Of a DNA stretch of 64,000 bases, positions 10,614 through 60,250 are shown in pieces. Below the pieces are notes generated by a model that saw only the letters and a list, made by a program, of their open reading frames with translations, did no database searches and was not told where the DNA came from. Location: positions 206,203-270,202 of the forward strand of contig JACRAJ010000001.1 of the NCBI GenBank assembly GCA_016213445.1, given 5' to 3'. This DNA is from Candidatus Azambacteria bacterium (GTDB lineage Bacteria; Patescibacteriota; Minisyncoccia; UBA10092). How positions within the stretch are numbered: position 1 is the first letter of the stretch; every line of letters begins with the position of its first letter. Both the position numbers and the translations under genes were made by a program.

Positions 10614-10695
10614 GTCGGGATGGCGAAACTGGTAGACGCGCCAGCCTTAGGAGCTGGTGGGGCAACCCTTGGGAGTTCGACTCTCCCTCCCGACA
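10614..10695 (+). tRNA. tRNA-Leu (anticodon TAG)
   Basis: Acceptor GTCGGGA/TCCCGAC, anticodon loop CTTAGGA, long variable arm, T-arm GGGAGTTCGACTCTCCC; CCA not encoded. Confidence 0.9.
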
Positions 10696-10751: not shown

Positions 10752-10818
10752 GGCACGCAACCAATTTTTTTCTTTAAAATGTCCTTTCCTTTTTTAAGAA
10801 AAAAATTGGTTGCGTGCC
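10752..10818. repeat. Isolated long perfect hairpin (20-bp stem, 27-nt loop)
   Basis: GGCACGCAACCAATTTTTTT (10752-10771) pairs perfectly with AAAAAAATTGGTTGCGTGCC (10799-10818). Confidence 0.85.
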
Positions 10819-10820
10819 AT

Positions 10821-10851
10821 AACAAACACCGGCCTAAGGCCGGTGTTTGTT
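10821..10851. terminator. Bidirectional hairpin between tRNA-Leu (+) and hsp20 (-)
   Basis: 14-bp stem AACAAACACCGGCC / GGCCGGTGTTTGTT, loop TAA, 4 nt from the hsp20 stop; weak U tracts. Confidence 0.6.
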
Positions 10852-24116: not shown

Positions 24117-26234
24117 ATGGTTGTTAAACAAAATTATCCAATCGAAAAAGTCCGCAATATCGGCATTATCGCTCATATTGACGCCGGAAAAACAACGGTT
24201 TCCGAGCGTGTTTTGTTTTACACCGGAATTTCCCATAAAATCGGCGAGGTTCACGAGGGCGCGGCCGTTATGGACTGGATGGAGCAGGAAAGAGAGCGCG
24301 GCATCACAATTACCGCCGCGGCCACGACCGCTTTCTGGACGCCGACGCGATACGTTGCCGCCGACGCCGGCAAAGAAAACGAACATCGCATCAATATTAT
24401 AGACACCCCCGGGCACATTGATTTTACCGTTGAAGTTCAGCGGTCATTGAGGGTTTTAGACGGCGCGGTGGTGGTTTTCGACGGCGTTGCCGGCGTTGAG
24501 CCGCAATCGGAAACCGTGTGGCGCCAGGCCGACAAATACGGCGTGCCGCGAATTTGTTTTATCAACAAGCTCGACCGAACGGGCGCGTCTTTTGAAAAAA
24601 GTTTGCAGTCGATTCGCGAGCGGCTTACTTTAAACGCCGTTCCGGCGAATTTTCCGATGGGCCTTGAAGACAAATTCGAAGGCGTTGTCGATTTAATTGA
24701 AAACAAGCTTGTTCGTTTTTTTGGCGAACACGGGGAAAAATTGGAATTTTCGGAAATTCCCGAAAATTTAAAACAAGAAGCCGAGAGCGCCCGGAAACAT
24801 TTGATTGAAAAAGTCGTTGAAACCGATGACAAATTGATGGAAAAATATCTTGAAGGCGCGAAAATTTCGAGCGATGAAATCAGGCGGGCGATGAGAAGCG
24901 CGGTGATTGCCAACAAATTGGCGCCGGTTTTTTGCGGCTCGGCTTTGAAAAATAAGGGAGTTCAATTGATGCTTGACGCGGTTGTCGATTATTTGCCAAA
25001 TCCGATTGAATTGCCGCCGACCAAAGGAATCGCTCCGAGAACGGGCGAAGAATTGGAACGCCGGCCGGATGAAAACGAGCCGTTCACCGCTTTGGCTTTT
25101 AAAATCGCCACCGATCCTTATGTCGGTTCGCTTACTTTTTTCCGCGTTTACTCCGGAAAATTATCCAAAGGCTCCTATGTTTTAAATTCAACCAAAGATT
25201 CCAAAGAACGGATCGGCAGAATTTTATTGATGCACGCCAACGAAAGGGAGGAGCTTGATGAAATTAAAGCCGGGGAAATCGGCGCGGCCGTGGGTTTGAA
25301 AAACACCACCACGGGCGACACGCTTTCCGATGAAGAACATCCGATAATTTTGGAGCAGATTGTTTTTCCGGAACCGGTTATTTCCCAAAAAATCGAACCG
25401 AAAACCAAGGCCGACCAGGAAAAAATGGGCATGGCTTTGAAGCGTTTGTCCGATGAAGACCCGACTTTCAGGATTAAAACCGATGCCGACACGGGCGAAA
25501 CCATTATTTCCGGCATGGGCGAACTTCATCTTGAAATCATCGTCGATCGGATGCAAAGGGAATTCAAAGTCGGCGCCAATATTGGCCGGCCGCAGGTGGC
25601 ATATAAAGAAACAATCAAGAAAACCGCCGAAGCCGAAGGAAAATACGTAAGGCAATCCGGCGGCCGCGGCCAATACGGCCATGTTTGGTTGAGAGTCGAA
25701 CCCGGCGAACGCGGTTCCGGCTTTGAATTTATGAATGAAATCAAGGGCGGCATCATTCCGCAGGAATTTATTCCGGCTACTGAAAAGGGCGTTATCGAAG
25801 CGATGGAAAAAGGCGTAAAAGCCGGTTTTCCCGTGGTTGATATGAAAGTGGCTCTTTACGACGGCTCTTTCCATGAAGTCGACTCTTCCGAAGCCGCTTT
25901 CAAAATTGCCGGCTCCATGGCTTTCCAAGAAGCCGCGAGGCGTGCCACCGTGATTTTGCTTGAGCCGATTATGAAAGTCGAGGTGGTTGTGCCCGAGCAG
26001 TTTTTCGGCGATATCACCGGAGATTTGAATTCCAAGCGCGGCAAAATTGAGCAAATGTCCGAACGGGCGATGTTGAAAGTGATTGACGCCAAAGTGCCTC
26101 TTTCGGAAATGTTCGGCTACGCCACGAAATTGCGCTCGATGAGCCAAGGCCGCGCGAGCTATACGATGGAATTCGACCACTACGAAGAAGTGCCGAACAA
26201 CGTCGCGGAAATGATCATCGCCGGAAAAAAATAA
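24117..26234 (+). CDS. fusA: Elongation factor G
   Basis: [27 protein letters not shown], domains II-V; 705 aa. Confidence 0.98.
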
Positions 26235-26237
26235 CTT

Positions 26238-26368
26238 TAAAATTTCTAATTATTCTAATTTCTAATTAACCTAATCAAATCTCAAATCCCAATGACTAAA
26301 CCTTAGACATTAAAAATTGGAGCTTGATTAGAAATTAGGTCAATTAGAGCAATTAGGTTAATTTTAAA
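26238..26368. repeat. Family C-like AT-rich periodic imperfect palindrome between fusA and the next ORF
   Basis: Arms built from ..CTAATT / AATTAG.. units (TTAAAATTTCTAATTATTCTAATTTCTAATTAACCTAAT ... ATTAGGTCAATTAGAGCAATTAGGTTAATTTTAA); centre CAAATCCCAATGA resembles 36535-36548. Confidence 0.65.
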
Positions 26369-36020: not shown

Positions 36021-36509
36021 ATGTTGAACAAAAGAAATCCCAATATTAAAAGAGGTTTCCAAAGGGAAAAATCTGAATTTGATCAGAAAGTTTTGGATAT
36101 CAGAAGGGTAACCCGAGTTGTGGCCGGCGGAAAAAGGTTTCGTTTTCGAGCCACGATTGTTTTAGGCGACCATAAAGGGCGCGTTGGCGTTGGCATTGCC
36201 AAAGGCGCCGATACTTCGGAAGCCATAGAAAAAGCCGGGCGGAGCGCGAAAAAGAATCTGATTTTTGTTCCGATGAAAAACAGCACCATTCCCCATGAAG
36301 TTGTCGGCAAATTTTCCAGCGCCGTGGTATTGTTCAGGCCGGCCGGGGAAGGCAGGGGCATTGTGGCCGGCGGCCCGATTCGGGCTGTGGCGAGTTTGGC
36401 GGGCATAGGCAATGTCACGTCCAAGATTTTGGGAACGACCACCAACAAATTAAACAACGCTCGGGCGGCGATAGAAGCGCTGAAAAAATTAAAATCTAAA
36501 CGACAATAA
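36021..36509 (+). CDS. rpsE: 30S ribosomal protein S5
   Basis: VLDIRRVTRVVAGGKRFRFRATIVLGD, GIGIAKG. Confidence 0.96.
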   Translation: MLNKRNPNIKRGFQREKSEFDQKVLDIRRVTRVVAGGKRFRFRATIVLGDHKGRVGVGIAKGADTSEAIEKAGRSAKKNLIFVPMKNSTIPHEVVGKFSSAVVLFRPAGEGRGIVAGGPIRAVASLAGIGNVTSKILGTTTNKLNNARAAIEALKKLKSKRQ

Positions 36510-36638
36510 TTTTCAAATTTACAATTTACAATTTTCAAATCCCATTGAATTTTCAATGAATCAATGTTCCAAACATTTGAAAATTAAAACATTAAATCAT
36601 TGATTGAAAATTGAGAATTGGAAATTGGAAATTTTTAA
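36510..36638. repeat. Family C AT-rich heptad-periodic imperfect palindrome occupying the slot where rpmD (L30) normally lies
   Basis: TTTCAAATTTACAATTTACAATTTTCAAATCCCATTGAATTTTCAATGAATCAATG ... CATTAAATCATTGATTGAAAATTGAGAATTGGAAATTGGAAATTTTT; ends 4 nt before rplO ATG. Confidence 0.7.
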
Positions 36639-38362: not shown

Positions 38363-38960
38363 AATCGCCATAGTTATTTTGGGCCGGCCCGGCTCGGGCA
38401 AAGACACGCAGGCAAAACTTTTGGCGAAAAAATTCGGGTTGGTTCACATAATTTCAAGCAAAGTTATTGAAAAAGCTTTAAAATCCCGCGAAACAAACAT
38501 TAAGCTTGGAGGCAGGGTTTATAATCTCGAACGCGAGCGCCGCTTGCAAAAAAGCGGTTCTTTAAATACTCCCGAATTCGTTTTGGCGCTTATCAAATCG
38601 GAAATAGAATCGGCGGCTTTGCGCGGTCGGGGGATTGTGATGAGCGGCTCGCCGAGAACTTTAAAAGAATTGAAGGGCGAGTGGCCGCTGATTGAAAAAT
38701 TATACGGAAAAAATATTTTCGCTTTTAACGTGATTATCAGCCCCAAGGAATCTTATATCAGGAATTTGAAGCGGCGCCGCAAAGATTTGCCGGAGCTCGA
38801 CACTCGGAAACTTATAAAAAAACGATTGGCGGTTTTTATGAACGAAACTTGGCCGGCGATAAAACTGCTGAAATCCAAAAAAATGATTATCGACATCGAC
38901 GGCGAACGGCCGATAATGAAAATCCACAAAAATATTTTGAAAATATTGTCGCTAAAATAA
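38349..38960 (+). CDS. adk: Adenylate kinase-like nucleoside-monophosphate kinase (divergent)
   Basis: P-loop ILGRPGSGKDTQ, GSPRT in place of GFPRT, conserved secY-adk-map position; ATG 38349 (GTG 38343 also possible). Confidence 0.75.
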   Translation: MKGSKIAIVILGRPGSGKDTQAKLLAKKFGLVHIISSKVIEKALKSRETNIKLGGRVYNLERERRLQKSGSLNTPEFVLALIKSEIESAALRGRGIVMSGSPRTLKELKGEWPLIEKLYGKNIFAFNVIISPKESYIRNLKRRRKDLPELDTRKLIKKRLAVFMNETWPAIKLLKSKKMIIDIDGERPIMKIHKNILKILSLK

Positions 38961-39107
38961 AAACAACCCCGTATTCGTTTTCTCGCGGGTTGTGAGCCCG
39001 AGCGGGCATGGTTCTTCCGCCGAAGGCGGAAGAGAGCGAGGGCGAACCCTTTCATTTCCCTCGCAGGGGGAAATGAAAAAAGCGAGAAAGTGAATGCGGG
39101 GTTGTTT
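38961..39107 (+). repeat. Family B structured intergenic element, copy 1
   Basis: Outer stem AAACAACCCCGTATTC / GAATGCGGGGTTGTTT; core GCGGGTTGTGAGCCCGAGCGGGCATGGTT-[hairpin, loop GAA]-AGAGCGAGGGCGAACCCTTTCATTTCCC...GGGAAATGAAAAAAGCG; homologous to 47229-47370 inverted. Confidence 0.85.
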
Positions 39108-39122
39108 GTAAAGAAAGAAAAG

Positions 39123-39887
39123 ATGATCACGATAAAAACAAAAGAAGAAATAGAAATTTTGAAAGAAGGCGGGAAAATTTTAGCCGATGTGTTAAATGAG
39201 ATTTCAAAATTTGCGAAGCCCGGCGTCAGTACCGGTTTGTTGAATCAAAAAGCCCGCGAGATGATTTTGGCTCGCGGCGCCGAACCGTCATTCGAGGGAT
39301 ATAAGCCGAGTTTTTCCGCCAAACCGTATCCGGCCGCCATTTGCGCGTCGCTCAATAGCGTCGTGGTTCATGGTCTGCCTTCCGAAAATGTTTTTTTAAA
39401 AGACGGAGATATTTTAAAATTAGACTTCGGAGTTAAATATAAAAATCTTTTCACCGATGCGGCGACAACAATCGGCGTCGGCAAAATGGCCGGTGAAAAA
39501 AACAAATTGATCGAAACCACGAAACGCGCGCTGGAGCTGGCTGTTAATGAGGTGAAATCGGGAAACCGCATCGGCGATATCGGCTACGCCATAGAAAATT
39601 ACGTTAAAAAACAAGGATTTTCCGTTGTTGAAGTTTTGGTCGGCCACGGCGTCGGCTACGCGGTTCACGAGGAGCCGAATATTCCGAACTACGGCAAAAA
39701 AGGCGATGGATTGGTTTTGAAATCGGGGATGGTTTTAGCCATCGAGCCGATGGTAACCATGGGAAGCGACAAGGTTAAAGAATCCCAAGACGGTTTCGGC
39801 TATGAAACCGTTGACGGCTCCCTTGCGGCTCATTTCGAACACACCGTCGCCGTCACGGACACCGGCGGCTTAATATTGACGAAATAA
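39123..39887 (+). CDS. map: Methionine aminopeptidase, type I
   Basis: MITIKTKEEIEILKEGG, AICASLNSVVVHGLP, DFGVKY, HGVGYAVHEEP, LAIEPM; start moved to ATG 39123 outside the repeat. Confidence 0.95.
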   Translation: MITIKTKEEIEILKEGGKILADVLNEISKFAKPGVSTGLLNQKAREMILARGAEPSFEGYKPSFSAKPYPAAICASLNSVVVHGLPSENVFLKDGDILKLDFGVKYKNLFTDAATTIGVGKMAGEKNKLIETTKRALELAVNEVKSGNRIGDIGYAIENYVKKQGFSVVEVLVGHGVGYAVHEEPNIPNYGKKGDGLVLKSGMVLAIEPMVTMGSDKVKESQDGFGYETVDGSLAAHFEHTVAVTDTGGLILTK

Positions 39888-40261: not shown

Positions 40262-40280
40262 AACTTTTTATGTCTCTTTT

Positions 40281-40425
40281 TTCAAACCAATATAAATAAT
40301 TTTCCTCGCGCATTCGGCCGCCCAGCGGCGGCCTCATTGTCCGATGAAAGCGTTTTGCTCCGCTATGCGGAGACCATGCCAAAACGCTTTCATAAGCTTC
40401 GTAAAATTATTTATATTGTTTTGAA
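40281..40425 (+). repeat. Family A structured intergenic element, copy 1
   Basis: 23-bp outer stem TTCAAACCAATATAAATAATTTT / AAAATTATTTATATTGTTTTGAA (1 mismatch); hp1 GGCCGCC-CAGC-GGCGGCC; 14-bp stem ATGAAAGCGTTTTG / CAAAACGCTTTCAT enclosing hp2 CTCCGC-TAT-GCGGAG. Confidence 0.9.
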
Positions 40426-40465
40426 ATGAAAAAAGCGAAAAAATAAAATAATTGATTTTTTTCGC

Positions 40466-40495
40466 TTGAAATTCATTATCTGAATCTGTTAAAAT
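40466..40495 (+). promoter_or_regulatory. Extended -10 promoter placing the start site at the GT2 ATG (leaderless)
   Basis: TTGAAA (40466-40471), 18-nt spacer, TGtTAAAAT (40487-40495), 7 nt, ATG 40503. Confidence 0.55.
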
Positions 40496-46774: not shown

Positions 46775-46779
46775 AAAGT

Positions 46780-46920
46780 ATATTGCCAAATAATAATTTT
46801 CCGAAGCTTATGAAAGCGTTTTGGCATGGCTCCCCCGCAGGGGGACAAAACGCTTTCATCGGACAATGAGCCTCGCGCTGGCGAGGCGAATGCGCGAGGA
46901 AAATTATTATTTGGCAATAT
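46780..46920 (-). repeat. Family A structured intergenic element, copy 3 (inverted orientation)
   Basis: Perfect 21-bp outer stem ATATTGCCAAATAATAATTTT / AAAATTATTATTTGGCAATAT; same core as 40281-40425 but hp1 = GCCTCGC-CAGC-GCGAGGC and hp2 = TCCCCC-TGC-GGGGGA. Confidence 0.9.
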
Positions 46921-46928
46921 AACAATAT

Positions 46929-47225
46929 ATGTTAACAAAAAAAGAAGTTGAAAAAATCGCCGGATTGGCGAGGCTGGAATTGGCCGAAAAAGAAAAAGAA
47001 AAATTCGCCGAAGATTTGTCTTCGGTGATCGGTTATGTCCAAAAACTGTCGGAAGTGAATGTTGAAAAAGTTGAGCCGATGGCGGGCGGAACGAATTTGA
47101 AAAGCGTCGTGCGAAAAGACGATGAAACCAAATGTATTTCCGATCCCGAAATGAGGAAACAAATTTTAAGCGCCGCTCCGGATCGCGAAGGCGATTATTT
47201 TAAGGTTCCGTCGATATTGGAATGA
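46929..47225 (+). CDS. gatC: Asp/Glu-tRNA amidotransferase subunit C
   Basis: 98 aa, LTKKEVEKIAGLARLELAEKEKEKFAEDLSSVIGYVQKLSEV. Confidence 0.9.
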   Translation: MLTKKEVEKIAGLARLELAEKEKEKFAEDLSSVIGYVQKLSEVNVEKVEPMAGGTNLKSVVRKDDETKCISDPEMRKQILSAAPDREGDYFKVPSILE

Positions 47226-47228
47226 TTT

Positions 47229-47370
47229 GAAAATTTTTTAATATTCATCCTCACGCTTTTTTCATTTCCCCCAGCGCGGGAAATGAAAGGGTTCGCCCTC
47301 GCTCTTGCTTCGCAAACCGTGCCTGCTCGGGCTCACAACCCGCTTTGAGGATAAATATTAAAAAATTTTC
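47229..47370 (-). repeat. Family B structured intergenic element, copy 2 (inverted orientation)
   Basis: 25-bp outer stem GAAAATTTTTTAATATTCATCCTCA / TGAGGATAAATATTAAAAAATTTTC (one C-A mismatch); core matches 38961-39107 inverted; variable hairpin TTGC-GAA-GCAA. Confidence 0.85.
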
Positions 47371-47376
47371 CTAAAT

Positions 47377-48828
47377 ATGAATTTAAAAGAATTAACAATT
47401 AAAAAAGCTCACGAACTTCTTAAAAAACGGGAAGCGAGTTCGGTTGAATTGGTTGAGGCGCATTTTGACGAGATTAAAAAACGCGACGGCGATATTTGCG
47501 CCTTTTTATCTTTAGCTGAAAAAGAGGCGACGGAGGCGGCGAAAAAAGTGGATGGAAGAATTGCGAAAGGCGAGCCGATTGAATTGCTTGCCGGAATTCC
47601 GGCGGCGATTAAAGACAATATTTTAATTCGCGGAGCCAAAGCCACCGCGGCTTCGAAAATTCTTGAAAATTATATCGCGCCTTACGACGCGACCGTTATT
47701 AAAAAACTCAAAGAAGAAGAAGCGGTATTTTTGGGAAAAACGAACATGGACGAGTTTGCCATGGGTTCTTCAACCGAAAATTCCGCTTTCGGGCCGACAA
47801 AAAATCCGATTGATTTGGAAAGAGTGCCCGGCGGTTCTTCCGGCGGTTCGGCGGCGGCGGTTAAAGCCGGCTTTTGCGTTTACGCTTTAGGTTCCGATAC
47901 CGGCGGCTCGATTCGCCAGCCGGCGGGTTTTTGCGGCGTAGTGGGCTTTAAACCGACTTACGGCGCCGTTTCCCGCCACGGATTAATGGCAATGGCTTCT
48001 TCTTTGGATCAAATCGGGCCGATCGCCAAAAATGTTGACGACGCGGCCGCGGTTTTCGAGGCGATTCGCGGCGCCGACGCGCTGGATTCTACCAGCGTTG
48101 ATATGGAATGGCAGGATTATTGGAATGAACCGGTAGATATAGAAGAAATAAAAATCGGCGTGCCGCGGGAATATTTTATCCACGGCTTGAATCCGGAAAT
48201 AGAAAAAAATATAAAATTCGCCATTCGCGCGCTGGAAAAAGAAGGCGCGAAGATTGTGGAAATTTCTTTGCCGTACAGCGAATGGGCTTTGGCGACTTAT
48301 TATATTATTATGCCGGCGGAAGTTTCGGCCAATCTGGCTCGATTTGACGGCATAAAATACGGGCATTCGGCAATCGACAAAGAAGAAAAATTGCAAAATT
48401 TATTGAAGGTTTATAATAAAAGCAGGGGAGAAAGCTTTGGAGCCGAAGCGAGGCGGAGAATTATGCTCGGAACCTACATTCTTTCCGCCGGCTATTACGA
48501 TGCTTATTATTCTCGGGCTCAAAAAGTGCGCCGGCTGATTAAACAAGATTTTGATCGCGCTTTTAAAGAAGTAGATGCCATTATAACGCCAACTTCGCCG
48601 ACAACCGCTTTCAAGTTCGGGGAAAAAATGCAAGATCCCTTGTCTATGTATCTGGCCGACATCTATACTGTTTCAATAAATTTGGCCGGCATTCCCGCCA
48701 TTTCCATTCCCGTGAAAGAAGTAAATAATTTGCCGGTCGGGCTTCAATTAATCGGCAATAATTTTGATGATATTAAATTGCTTAAAATCGCCAAGGTGGT
48801 TGAGATATTAAATAAACAGAATTTATGA
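47377..48828 (+). CDS. gatA: Glutamyl-tRNA(Gln)/Asp-tRNA(Asn) amidotransferase subunit A
   Basis: Amidase signature GGSSGGSAAAV, GSDTGGSIRQPA. Confidence 0.96.
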   Translation: MNLKELTIKKAHELLKKREASSVELVEAHFDEIKKRDGDICAFLSLAEKEATEAAKKVDGRIAKGEPIELLAGIPAAIKDNILIRGAKATAASKILENYIAPYDATVIKKLKEEEAVFLGKTNMDEFAMGSSTENSAFGPTKNPIDLERVPGGSSGGSAAAVKAGFCVYALGSDTGGSIRQPAGFCGVVGFKPTYGAVSRHGLMAMASSLDQIGPIAKNVDDAAAVFEAIRGADALDSTSVDMEWQDYWNEPVDIEEIKIGVPREYFIHGLNPEIEKNIKFAIRALEKEGAKIVEISLPYSEWALATYYIIMPAEVSANLARFDGIKYGHSAIDKEEKLQNLLKVYNKSRGESFGAEARRRIMLGTYILSAGYYDAYYSRAQKVRRLIKQDFDRAFKEVDAIITPTSPTTAFKFGEKMQDPLSMYLADIYTVSINLAGIPAISIPVKEVNNLPVGLQLIGNNFDDIKLLKIAKVVEILNKQNL

Positions 48829-49361: not shown

Positions 49362-49508
49362 AAAAACAAAAACAAAATCATTTTCCTCGCGCGCTCGTCC
49401 CGCCAGCGCGGGACTCGCTGTCCGATGAAAGCATTTTAGTCCCGCTTTGCGGGACACCGCGCTATAACGCCTTCATAAGCTTCGGAAAATGATTTTGTTT
49501 TTGTTTTT
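49362..49508 (+). repeat. Family A structured intergenic element, copy 4 (most diverged)
   Basis: Perfect 23-bp outer stem AAAAACAAAAACAAAATCATTTT / AAAATGATTTTGTTTTTGTTTTT; hp1 GTCCCGC-CAGC-GCGGGAC, hp2 GTCCCGC-TTT-GCGGGAC; central stem keeps 11 of 14 pairs. Confidence 0.85.
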
Positions 49509-60105: not shown

Positions 60106-60250
60106 TTCAAACCAATATAAATAATTTTTCTCGCGCATTCGGCCGCCCAGCGGCGACCTCATTGTCCGATGAAAGCGTTTTGCTCCGCTACGCGGAGACC
60201 ATGCCAAAACGCTTTCATAAGCTTCGTAAAATTATTTATATTGTTTTGAA
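60106..60250 (+). repeat. Family A structured intergenic element, copy 2
   Basis: About 97% identical to 40281-40425 including the outer stem; differences are a C-to-T in TTTTCCTCG, a G-to-A in the hp1 3' arm (C-A on plus, U-G on the transcribed minus strand) and a T-to-C in the hp2 loop. Confidence 0.9.

Follow-up and report, generated by a model that had tools for sequence, protein, structure and literature searches.

Structured intergenic repeat elements between housekeeping genes of a Candidatus Azambacteria genome and their relatives in other phyla

The 64-kb window analyzed here, by which we mean the whole stretch of Candidatus Azambacteria DNA under study, contains six inverted-repeat elements in which outer stems of 23 to 29 bp enclose 92 to 99 nt, as found in an inverted-repeat scan. 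Two of them belong to family B, the main subject of this work, and four to family A. The first family B copy (B1, element I5) extends from P1 to P1′ over positions 38958 to 39110 of the plus strand and scores 92.9 bits (E = 4e-31) with a covariance model. It lies between adk, whose stop codon TAA (38958-38960) is part of the outer stem, and map, which starts with ATG at 39123, and it is in sense orientation relative to its host genes. The second copy (B2, I6) covers positions 47229 to 47370 of the minus strand (88.9 bits, E = 1e-29) between the gatC stop codon (47223-47225) and the gatA start at 47377, and is antisense to its host genes. An initial annotation had described these two copies in opposite orientations, had noted their tight placement between stop and start codons, and had proposed a shared conserved core, all of which was borne out. 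B1 and B2 share exact blocks of 19, 28, and 18 nt; for the 19-nt block (GCGGGTTGTGAGCCCGAGC) and for the 28-nt block (AGAGCGAGGGCGAACCCTTTCATTTCCC), the 64 kb contain exactly two occurrences each, where zero are expected from dinucleotide shuffles. Compared with shuffles, the folding of the two regions gave z values of -9.4 (B1) and -8.6 (B2).

In B1, the outer stem P1 is formed by a 29-nt 5′ arm (38958-38986) and its partner, the 3′ arm delimited by the inverted-repeat scan (39082-39110), which are 86% complementary with three G·T and no A·C pairs. The 5′ strand of P2, GGGTTGT plus GA, follows at 38987-38995; the GA forms a tandem G·A with the GA at 39044-39045, GGGTT/GT pairs with AACCC at 39045-39049, and this helix 1 covaries. 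Block M1 (GCCCGAGCGGGCATGG, 38996-39011) contributes GCCC and GC, which pair with GGGC and GC of block M2 over a tandem G·A, as well as the conserved bulge GGGCAYGG. The variable hairpin P3 (39012-39033) consists of a U followed by UCUUCCGCC-GAA-GGCGGAAGA, and block M2 (GAGCGAGGGCGA, 39034-39045) supplies the 3′ strand of the GC/tandem-GA/GGGC helix and then the second tandem GA. Hairpin P4 (TTTCATTTCCC/GGGAAATGAAA, 39050-39078) carries a loop of the conserved type, TCGCAGG, at 39061-39067. All of these B1 features are on the plus strand, whereas those of B2 are on the minus strand: M1 (GCCCGAGCAGGCACGG) at 47317-47332, P3 (TTTGCGAAGCAA, which includes a GCGAAGC mini-hairpin) at 47305-47316, M2 (GAGCGAGGG) at 47296-47304, and P4 at 47260-47288 with the loop GCGCTGG at 47271-47277. 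The GAA-capped internal hairpin with variable stems and the 9-bp stem TCATTTCCC/GGGAAATGA that had been noticed in the initial annotation correspond to P3 and P4, respectively, and both covary across the family. The outer stems had been regarded as unrelated between copies; this applies to their distal parts only, as the proximal part is common within a subfamily.

A two-block pattern scan of metagenome contigs, in which both conserved blocks were held fixed, yielded at least 120 loci from groundwater and sediment samples, and the G+C content of the contigs carrying family B ranges from 0.34 to 0.69. About 100 of the listed metagenome loci are non-redundant, and one architecture is common to all. 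Because the pattern fixed the two conserved blocks, copies escaping it were then sought by a profile search, which revealed diverged second copies on six contigs. In a collection with one genome per species, a scan for a 20-mer produced two true matches, both in metagenome-assembled genomes (MAGs) of Omnitrophota, besides a majority of chance matches in GC-rich genomes. These two loci resemble each other in the element alone. One G+C-rich contig with the element encodes an RNase R nearest to proteins named Candidatus Aminicenantes or Acidobacteriota. The Map protein of the window has 100% identity to an NCBI protein assigned to Candidatus Azambacteria. With members in Candidatus Azambacteria, in Omnitrophota MAGs, and on this Aminicenantes-like contig, family B therefore spans at least three phyla, namely Patescibacteria, Omnitrophota, and an Aminicenantes-like group. 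The Omnitrophota versions (L008, 4180-4390, minus strand; L010, 3480-3690, plus strand) are about 200 nt long, with additional hairpins in the stretch that separates the conserved blocks and with a second conserved segment, CAAGCGCAGCAA...GCAAGCGGUGCGGCGA; each is located between two genes, in antisense orientation.

We compared these sequences with known families using Rfam 15, whose 4227 models include all curated ribozymes, riboswitches, small RNAs, and known repeat RNAs. In the whole window only tRNAs were found at the gathering threshold, and B1 and B2 gave only hairpin-shaped microRNA noise at E ≤ 10. There was no match at the two Omnitrophota loci and, at E ≤ 0.5, none at the elements of 14 diverse members. 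A blastn search against annotated plasmids and phages found nothing similar to family B, two 17-18-mer scans of viral contigs gave chance matches only, and a literature search by sequence string and keywords retrieved no description of the family. The element thus came through the three checks that the initial annotation had proposed for it: further copies are numerous, the helices described below covary strongly, and the sequence matches none of the known repeat or RNA families. We conclude that the feature is real and reproducible, is undescribed as far as we searched, and is best regarded as a structured intergenic mobile repeat in kind.

Across the family, the element has a median length of 144 nt, and its closing stem P1 (ungapped median, 22 bp) leads to a three-way junction with two arms. 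The first arm is composed of P2, a tandem G·A, GCCC:GGGC, a further tandem G·A, GC:GC, the asymmetric bulge 5′-GGGCAYGG(U), and the variable hairpin P3. The second is hairpin P4 with a near-invariant closing C-G pair and the loop YCGCNGG(G). For 36 diverse members, RNAalifold picked the long-range pairings GCCC:GGGC and GC:GC plus P4, with compensatory changes in seven P4 pairs. In five of the six diverged second copies the long-range helix compensates, namely as GGCC:GGCC (L056, L071), ACCC:GGGU (L117), or GGC:GCC (L065), or with a changed internal loop (L100). In the proposed structure 89.1% of cells pair, compared with 68.5% in shuffles, and the covariation score is 0.511 versus 0.129 in shuffles, of which 0 out of 500 reached it; scores of 0.03 to 0.12 were obtained when the partners were slid. 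The pairs of P3 and P4 are 71 to 98% canonical versus 37 to 88% in shuffles, according to helix-anchored counts in about 95 copies. Covariation also ruled out two local hairpins, GCCC-GAGC-GGGC and AGGG-CGAA-CCCU, the bases of which instead form GCCC:GGGC, GC:GC, and GGGTT:AACCC with tandem G·A. The AGGG-CGAA-CCCT hairpin of the initial annotation was therefore abandoned, as its bases pair over a long range and diverged copies covary in these long-range pairs. These results show that the fold belongs to one defined strand, with a long closing stem that opens into a three-way junction, and that the G·A-interrupted helix, the GGGCAYGG bulge, and the P4 loop YCGCUGGG are its invariant features. 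Compensatory changes preserve the helices, as is generally required of a single-strand fold, and the description of a genuinely structured, repeated intergenic element whose core is conserved and whose inner hairpins covary inside a long outer stem was confirmed.

A tandem G·A box, 5′-C-GA-G-3′ with 5′-C-GA-G-3′, occurs in the central arm, in many P3 hairpins, in the P4 of one subfamily, in the distal P1 of another, and in family A. In one subfamily (L037, L052, L079, L086, L088, L097, L100, L115, L129, and L137) the stem extends past P1 into a conserved box, GCGAGGA...UCCGAGC, which is the tandem-G·A motif of the core with the strands swapped. A reading of the G·A boxes as kink-turns was rejected because the G·A pairs have no adjoining 3-nt bulge. 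Pseudoknots between the bulge GCAU and the tail AUGC in family A, between the bulge CAYG and the 3′ junction CGUG in family B, and between M2 and the P4 loop were likewise considered and are unsupported by a 12-copy alignment of family A and by the subfamilies of family B.

The folding strand was determined from the mismatches in P1, which were scored neutrally by treating G·U and A·C alike. On the strand reading GCCCGAGC, 83 G·U pairs were counted versus 26 A·C pairs (p = 4e-8), and where both neighboring genes lie on the opposite strand the ratio was 29 to 4. The mismatches in P3 (12 G·U versus 6 A·C) agree with those in P1. Furthermore, when RNA parameters were used, the sense strand of the element was the more stable one in 76 of 77 cases, with a mean difference of 10.4 kcal/mol; with DNA parameters this held for all 77. 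The excess of G·U pairs and the asymmetry in stability therefore settle a question that the initial annotation had left unresolved: the element's own strand is marked by the G·T pairs in copy 1 as well as by the lone G·T in copy 2. This strand folds whatever the direction of the host genes; at adk|map it is the strand of the mRNA, and at gatC|gatA it is antisense.

The loops provide information on the nucleic acid that is folded. The mini-hairpin d(GCGAAGC) is very stable, and tandem sheared G·A pairs in a Y-GA-R context are stable also in DNA. GNA was found in 21 of 33 P3 triloops (p = 9e-18 versus chance), 19 of them closed by C-G in the style of GCGAAGC, while about 4 of 20 tetraloops were of the GNRA type and none was UNCG. 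Since GNA triloops dominate, GNRA loops are rare, UNCG loops are absent, and the tandem G·A is stable in DNA, the folded intermediate proposed below would most likely be single-stranded DNA (ssDNA), in the manner of repetitive extragenic palindromes (REPs) and their RAYT transposases or of IS200/IS605 elements, and RNA is less likely.

The relationship to family A was analyzed with a covariance model built from B sequences only and run without filters over the whole window. After the two B copies, the next best matches were the four A copies, all at full length and on the strand predicted from the G·U evidence of family A itself; the following match had an E value of 0.057. These copies are I9 (40280-40426, minus strand, E = 8e-6), located between ruvX and a GT2 gene and antisense to its host genes; I11 (60106-60250, minus strand, E = 3e-5), with a stem and core as in I9; I7 (46779-46921, E = 1e-4), between ligA and gatC with the plus strand as its sense strand; and I4 (49362-49508, minus strand, E = 2e-3), which lies downstream of two minus-strand tRNA genes and converges on a plus-strand open reading frame (ORF). 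Retrieval of all four contradicts the earlier statement that family B has no sequence similarity to family A. The proposal that the two families share a design is supported, as the alignment to the covariance model has the parts in the same order, namely P1, an arm with the bulge GCAYGGU and then P3, and a hairpin with the loop CGCUGG; for the same reason, the idea of a circular permutation of A relative to B was dropped. Covarying pairs in family A are found beside the tandem G·A boxes, both those at the base of P1 and those around the CGCUGG hairpin. A profile of the four A copies detected A elements on at least eight metagenome contigs that had been fetched solely for carrying B, and the two families therefore co-occur in the same genomes. 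Family A is thus a distant relative or sister of family B. Right after I9, positions 40424-40475 contain 15 nt identical to the 3′ end of the B core (GAAATGAAAAAAGCG) and then a hairpin, AAGCGAAAAAA...TTTTTTCGCTT. This feature could be due to chance in AT-rich sequence, a terminator, or the remnant of a B copy.

Three relatives, whose Map proteins are 74 to 81% identical, retain the gene order secY-adk-map-ruvX-...-ligA-gatC-gatA. Their adk and map genes overlap (ATGA or TAATG), their gatC-gatA spacer is 17 nt, and the ligA-gatC gap is 4 to 5 nt in L148 and L149, with an extra gene in between in L150. Neither a profile hidden Markov model nor the covariance model detected an A or B copy in the syntenic 20-kb regions of the relatives. 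Four sites that are filled in the window are thus empty at the same positions in L148, L149, L150, and L152. Because the orthologous sites are empty in syntenic relatives, B1, B2, and two A copies are lineage-specific insertions, and one of them split a gene pair, adk and map, that is translationally coupled in the relatives. The empty sites also speak against the action in the sense transcripts from adk to map and from gatC to gatA that had been suggested initially. Comparison of filled and empty sites revealed no clear target-site duplication. Positions 39111-39122 between B1 and the map start codon have the purine-rich sequence AAGAAAGAAAAG, which is lacking in the relatives with their overlapping adk and map genes and may be a ribosome-binding site gained with or after the insertion of B1.

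Dispersal as a unit was observed in the metagenome loci, where one complete element including a 24-bp stem is present in four unrelated flanks (L064, L083, L139, and L143). These four copies differ by whole P3 or P4 modules, and such module shuffling explains why B1 and B2 are alike in core and P4 yet different in P3 and distal P1. Single contigs carry two or three copies, including head-to-head pairs. Pairs of this type, about 10 to 50 nt apart, are found on G+C-rich contigs (L056, 1540-1870; L117, 2600-2880; L144, 2380-3147), and one contig has three B copies within 800 nt, which suggests clustered insertion or insertion beside existing copies.

The gene context of the elements was derived from simple ORF calls on contigs with a G+C content below 0.5, a crude approach, although stop codons are frequent at that G+C content. 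By these calls, tandem genes flank 37 elements, convergent genes 15, and divergent genes 3, and the distances indicate that the elements nearly fill their spacers. In the spacers between tandem genes, 28 copies are antisense and 9 are sense (p = 0.003). A function in the sense transcript, as envisaged in the initial annotation, is therefore not supported in general either, because it is the orientation of the element, and not host transcription, that determines which strand folds. Among about 110 loci, no neighboring protein family recurs at more than 5. We found no terminator-like site after B1 or B2 and no T run after P1, as an intrinsic terminator would have; no promoter-like site upstream of B2 on its own strand was detected, and the copies are not associated with any promoter or terminator signal.

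The window contains further inverted repeats. AT-rich imperfect ones lie at 36508-36634 (31-nt arms, 65 nt apart) and 26228-26365 (45-nt arms, 48 nt apart) in intergenic positions of the region that encodes ribosomal proteins and EF-G/EF-Tu. Their sequences show no relation to families A and B, and they may represent another type of repeat. In addition, a 28-bp near-perfect hairpin with an 11-nt loop (10752-10818) is followed by a 15-bp perfect hairpin (10821-10851), with a tRNA gene (10614-10695) just upstream.

The reading that we favor, at slightly better than an even chance, is that families A and B consist of mobile elements, about 145 nt long and non-autonomous, that have settled in short intergenic spacers of the Candidatus Azambacteria genome and spread via a folded single-stranded intermediate. 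It is based on the presence/absence polymorphism, the dispersal as a unit, the module shuffling, the lack of a fixed neighbor, the REP-like placement, and a strand-specific fold that ignores host transcription. The fold would make the element copyable, with an enzyme acting in trans that presumably recognizes it in the single-stranded intermediate. Such a recognition requirement would keep the core constant across phyla, whereas the stems would only need to remain paired. An inserted copy would be a passenger, and selection might retain only insertions in spacers after gene ends and favor the orientation that gives the host mRNA the weaker-folding complement. Effects on the expression of adk|map or gatC|gatA, for example through an RNase III-cleavable hairpin of 22 to 29 bp, would then be a by-product and not the reason for the element, and we consider cis-regulation of these gene pairs unlikely.

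Several observations weigh against this interpretation. No excision or circular intermediate was seen. Among the large ORFs of the window, every Pfam match is to a housekeeping gene and four ORFs match no family; a transposase, a reverse transcriptase, or an HUH gene was not found there, and an IS200 TnpA probe found no match in about 1 Mb of collected loci. Direct repeats flanking the 15 copies with enough flank were no longer than those in shuffled flank pairs, and thus gave no indication of a target-site duplication. The mismatches in P4 run contrary to the trend in P1 (6 G·U versus 23 A·C), ungapped counts in P4 being unreliable because of bulges and G·A boxes. The terminal stems vary around an invariant center, which is the opposite of ordinary miniature inverted-repeat transposable elements (MITEs), defined by terminal inverted repeats (TIRs), and of REPINs. 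An invariant core of 35 nt across three phyla is moreover what ribozymes, protein-binding RNAs, and other functional RNAs would be expected to show. Finally, ssDNA transposition of the IS200/IS605 type predicts that the folded strand is on the lagging-strand template, co-oriented with most genes. The observed orientation bias is the reverse, so that selection must be invoked.

The functional-RNA pattern of the core, invariant over three phyla while the helices covary, would also be accounted for by a multicopy family of small-RNA genes, in which the core RNA acts in trans or binds a protein, with the long variable P1 as a processing stalk that frees it from any carrier transcript, like the RNase III stems that flank rRNAs. 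The median stem of 22 bp is suitable for RNase III, one strand is singled out by G·U pairs and energy, optional extra domains occur in P3 and P4 as in Omnitrophota, and about half of the copies have a co-oriented upstream gene or tRNA as a possible source of transcription. We nevertheless consider this explanation unlikely, since 28 of the 37 copies in tandem spacers are antisense to the only evident transcription, B2 has no promoter-like site upstream on its own strand, and just 0 to 80 nt are left in the spacers for signals. Close relatives with the same essential genes manage without copies, the hairpin caps are GNA triloops instead of GNRA or UNCG, and modules are shuffled among copies as in selfish repeats. 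Another possibility is a new self-cleaving or self-ligating ribozyme on a mobile RNA-based element, with bulge and P4 loop as its putative active site. About 35 invariant nucleotides in bulge and loop surround a three-way junction with covarying helices, and the multicopy, patchy, cross-phylum distribution without a fixed gene neighbor recalls that of hammerhead and twister ribozymes. Sense insertions upstream of a gene might be disfavored because the mRNA would be cut, and sense copies upstream of co-oriented genes are indeed depleted. Still, no Rfam ribozyme model matches, no candidate cleavage site can be named, the triloop statistics favor DNA, and a tertiary pairing between bulge and loop is unsupported, the pseudoknot ideas having failed on the family A alignment, so that a ribozyme appears more doubtful still.

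In line with the cleavage at the long stems that the initial annotation had considered, the elements could also be viewed as cis-acting operon punctuation, that is, as structures in polycistronic mRNA that are cleaved or stabilize cistrons and thereby tune adk versus map and gatC versus gatA. ERIC and Correia elements have such effects on flanking transcripts. The tight placement from stop to start codon and the long perfect stem, which is present in either orientation, would fit this view, and side effects of this kind have been reported for REPs (PMC3733652). However, it is the weakest of the rival explanations, and a very improbable one, because both orthologous sites are unoccupied in syntenic relatives, whose adk and map genes are translationally coupled, and because the copies are predominantly antisense: the core fold is specific to the strand of the element, which in most operon copies is not the mRNA strand. 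Moreover, the same element is found beside unrelated genes.

Beyond the favored reading of A and B as non-autonomous mobile elements, there is a substantial chance that the family is more unusual than known structured intergenic mobile repeats. Tentatively, and with a likelihood that we place well short of even, the two families may form a previously unrecognized cross-phylum class of mobile elements defined by a folded single strand and not by its termini. Such a class might take one of two forms, either a new ssDNA transposon substrate, with the tandem-G·A helix, bulge, and loop as the platform for an undiscovered enzyme, or a new catalytic or enzyme-recruiting RNA that copies itself via an RNA intermediate. 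Genomes of the candidate phyla radiation (CPR) are tiny and gene-dense, yet this 64-kb stretch holds six elements between essential genes, including a pair that is coupled in relatives. The spread through CPR, Omnitrophota, and Aminicenantes-like organisms with some 35 nucleotides of the core preserved implies a conserved machinery or activity still to be discovered, and a partner, if found, would reveal a further mechanism of mobility or a novel fold of a functional nucleic acid. For annotation, the result is a warning that regulator-like hairpins at such sites are insertions here, and the family is a ready marker for strain-level variation in groundwater metagenomes.

With respect to known systems, readings of the element as a 5S rRNA, tRNA-like, retron, attC, terminator, or REP sequence were each checked and rejected by Rfam, signal scans, and tag or box counts. 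Integron attC sites resemble family B in that structure is conserved above sequence, one strand folds, and the site lies tightly between ORFs. However, the R″/R′ boxes (RYYYAAC/GTTRRRY) are both present in 0 of 77 B copies, the neighbors are the housekeeping genes adk, map, gatC, gatA, ligA, and ruvX instead of cassettes, and conservation is concentrated in the center, not at the ends. Small self-cleaving ribozymes such as hammerhead, twister, pistol, and hatchet would be comparable in size, in having covarying helices around a few dozen invariant nucleotides and a variable closing stem, and in their multicopy, patchy distribution, but none of their covariance models matches family B. Classical MITEs share TIRs among all copies and with a parent insertion sequence, whereas the inverted termini of family B are common only within subfamilies, and no parent insertion sequence was found. 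IS200/IS605 elements rely on strand-specific recognition of folded DNA, need no TIR, and generate no target duplication (PMC6006769). Family B likewise has one folding strand, and no target duplication was detected in the 15 copies with enough flank. It differs by the lack of a match to the TnpA probe in the 1 Mb of loci, by the lack of a conserved flanking tetranucleotide, by an orientation bias opposite to the lagging-strand-template rule, and by the one long stem that closes the whole element.

REPs are short, abundant, non-coding intergenic palindromes that form hairpins in ssDNA or mRNA and are non-autonomous, with the enzyme encoded elsewhere (PMC3116915, PMC3733652). They occur mainly between unidirectional and convergent genes, downstream of coding regions (PMC3733652), a preference that family B shares with its 37 tandem, 15 convergent, and 3 divergent sites. 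REP units, however, are 20 to 40 bp long and have an unpaired GTAG or CGTC tag (PMC3733652), which is found near the 5′ end in 1 of 77 B copies, its complement being near the 3′ end in 4 of 77. No RAYT/Y1 transposase was detected among the window proteins or, with the TnpA probe, in the collected loci. In REPINs the arms are conserved and the spacer less so (PMC3116915), whereas in family B the arms vary and a conserved branched center is held across phyla. Consequently, family B lies outside the Rfam families, the GTAG- or CGTC-tagged REPs, the attC sites, and the intrinsic terminators. ERIC, Correia/NEMIS, RUP, and BOX elements are about 100 to 150 bp long, have terminal inverted repeats, reside in transcribed spacers in both orientations, and form long RNA hairpins that are possible RNase targets. 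With about 145 nt, inverted termini, an intergenic location in either orientation, and a long hairpin, family B resembles them. Their terminal repeats are constant and each of these families is confined to a genus or family of bacteria, whereas family B combines variable termini with a covarying three-way-junction core in at least three phyla; a TA or other duplication was not detected for the 15 B copies with enough flank. In its working, family B is thus most like the REP/REPIN and the ERIC- or Correia-type repeats, from which it is set apart by its variable termini and its invariant branched center.

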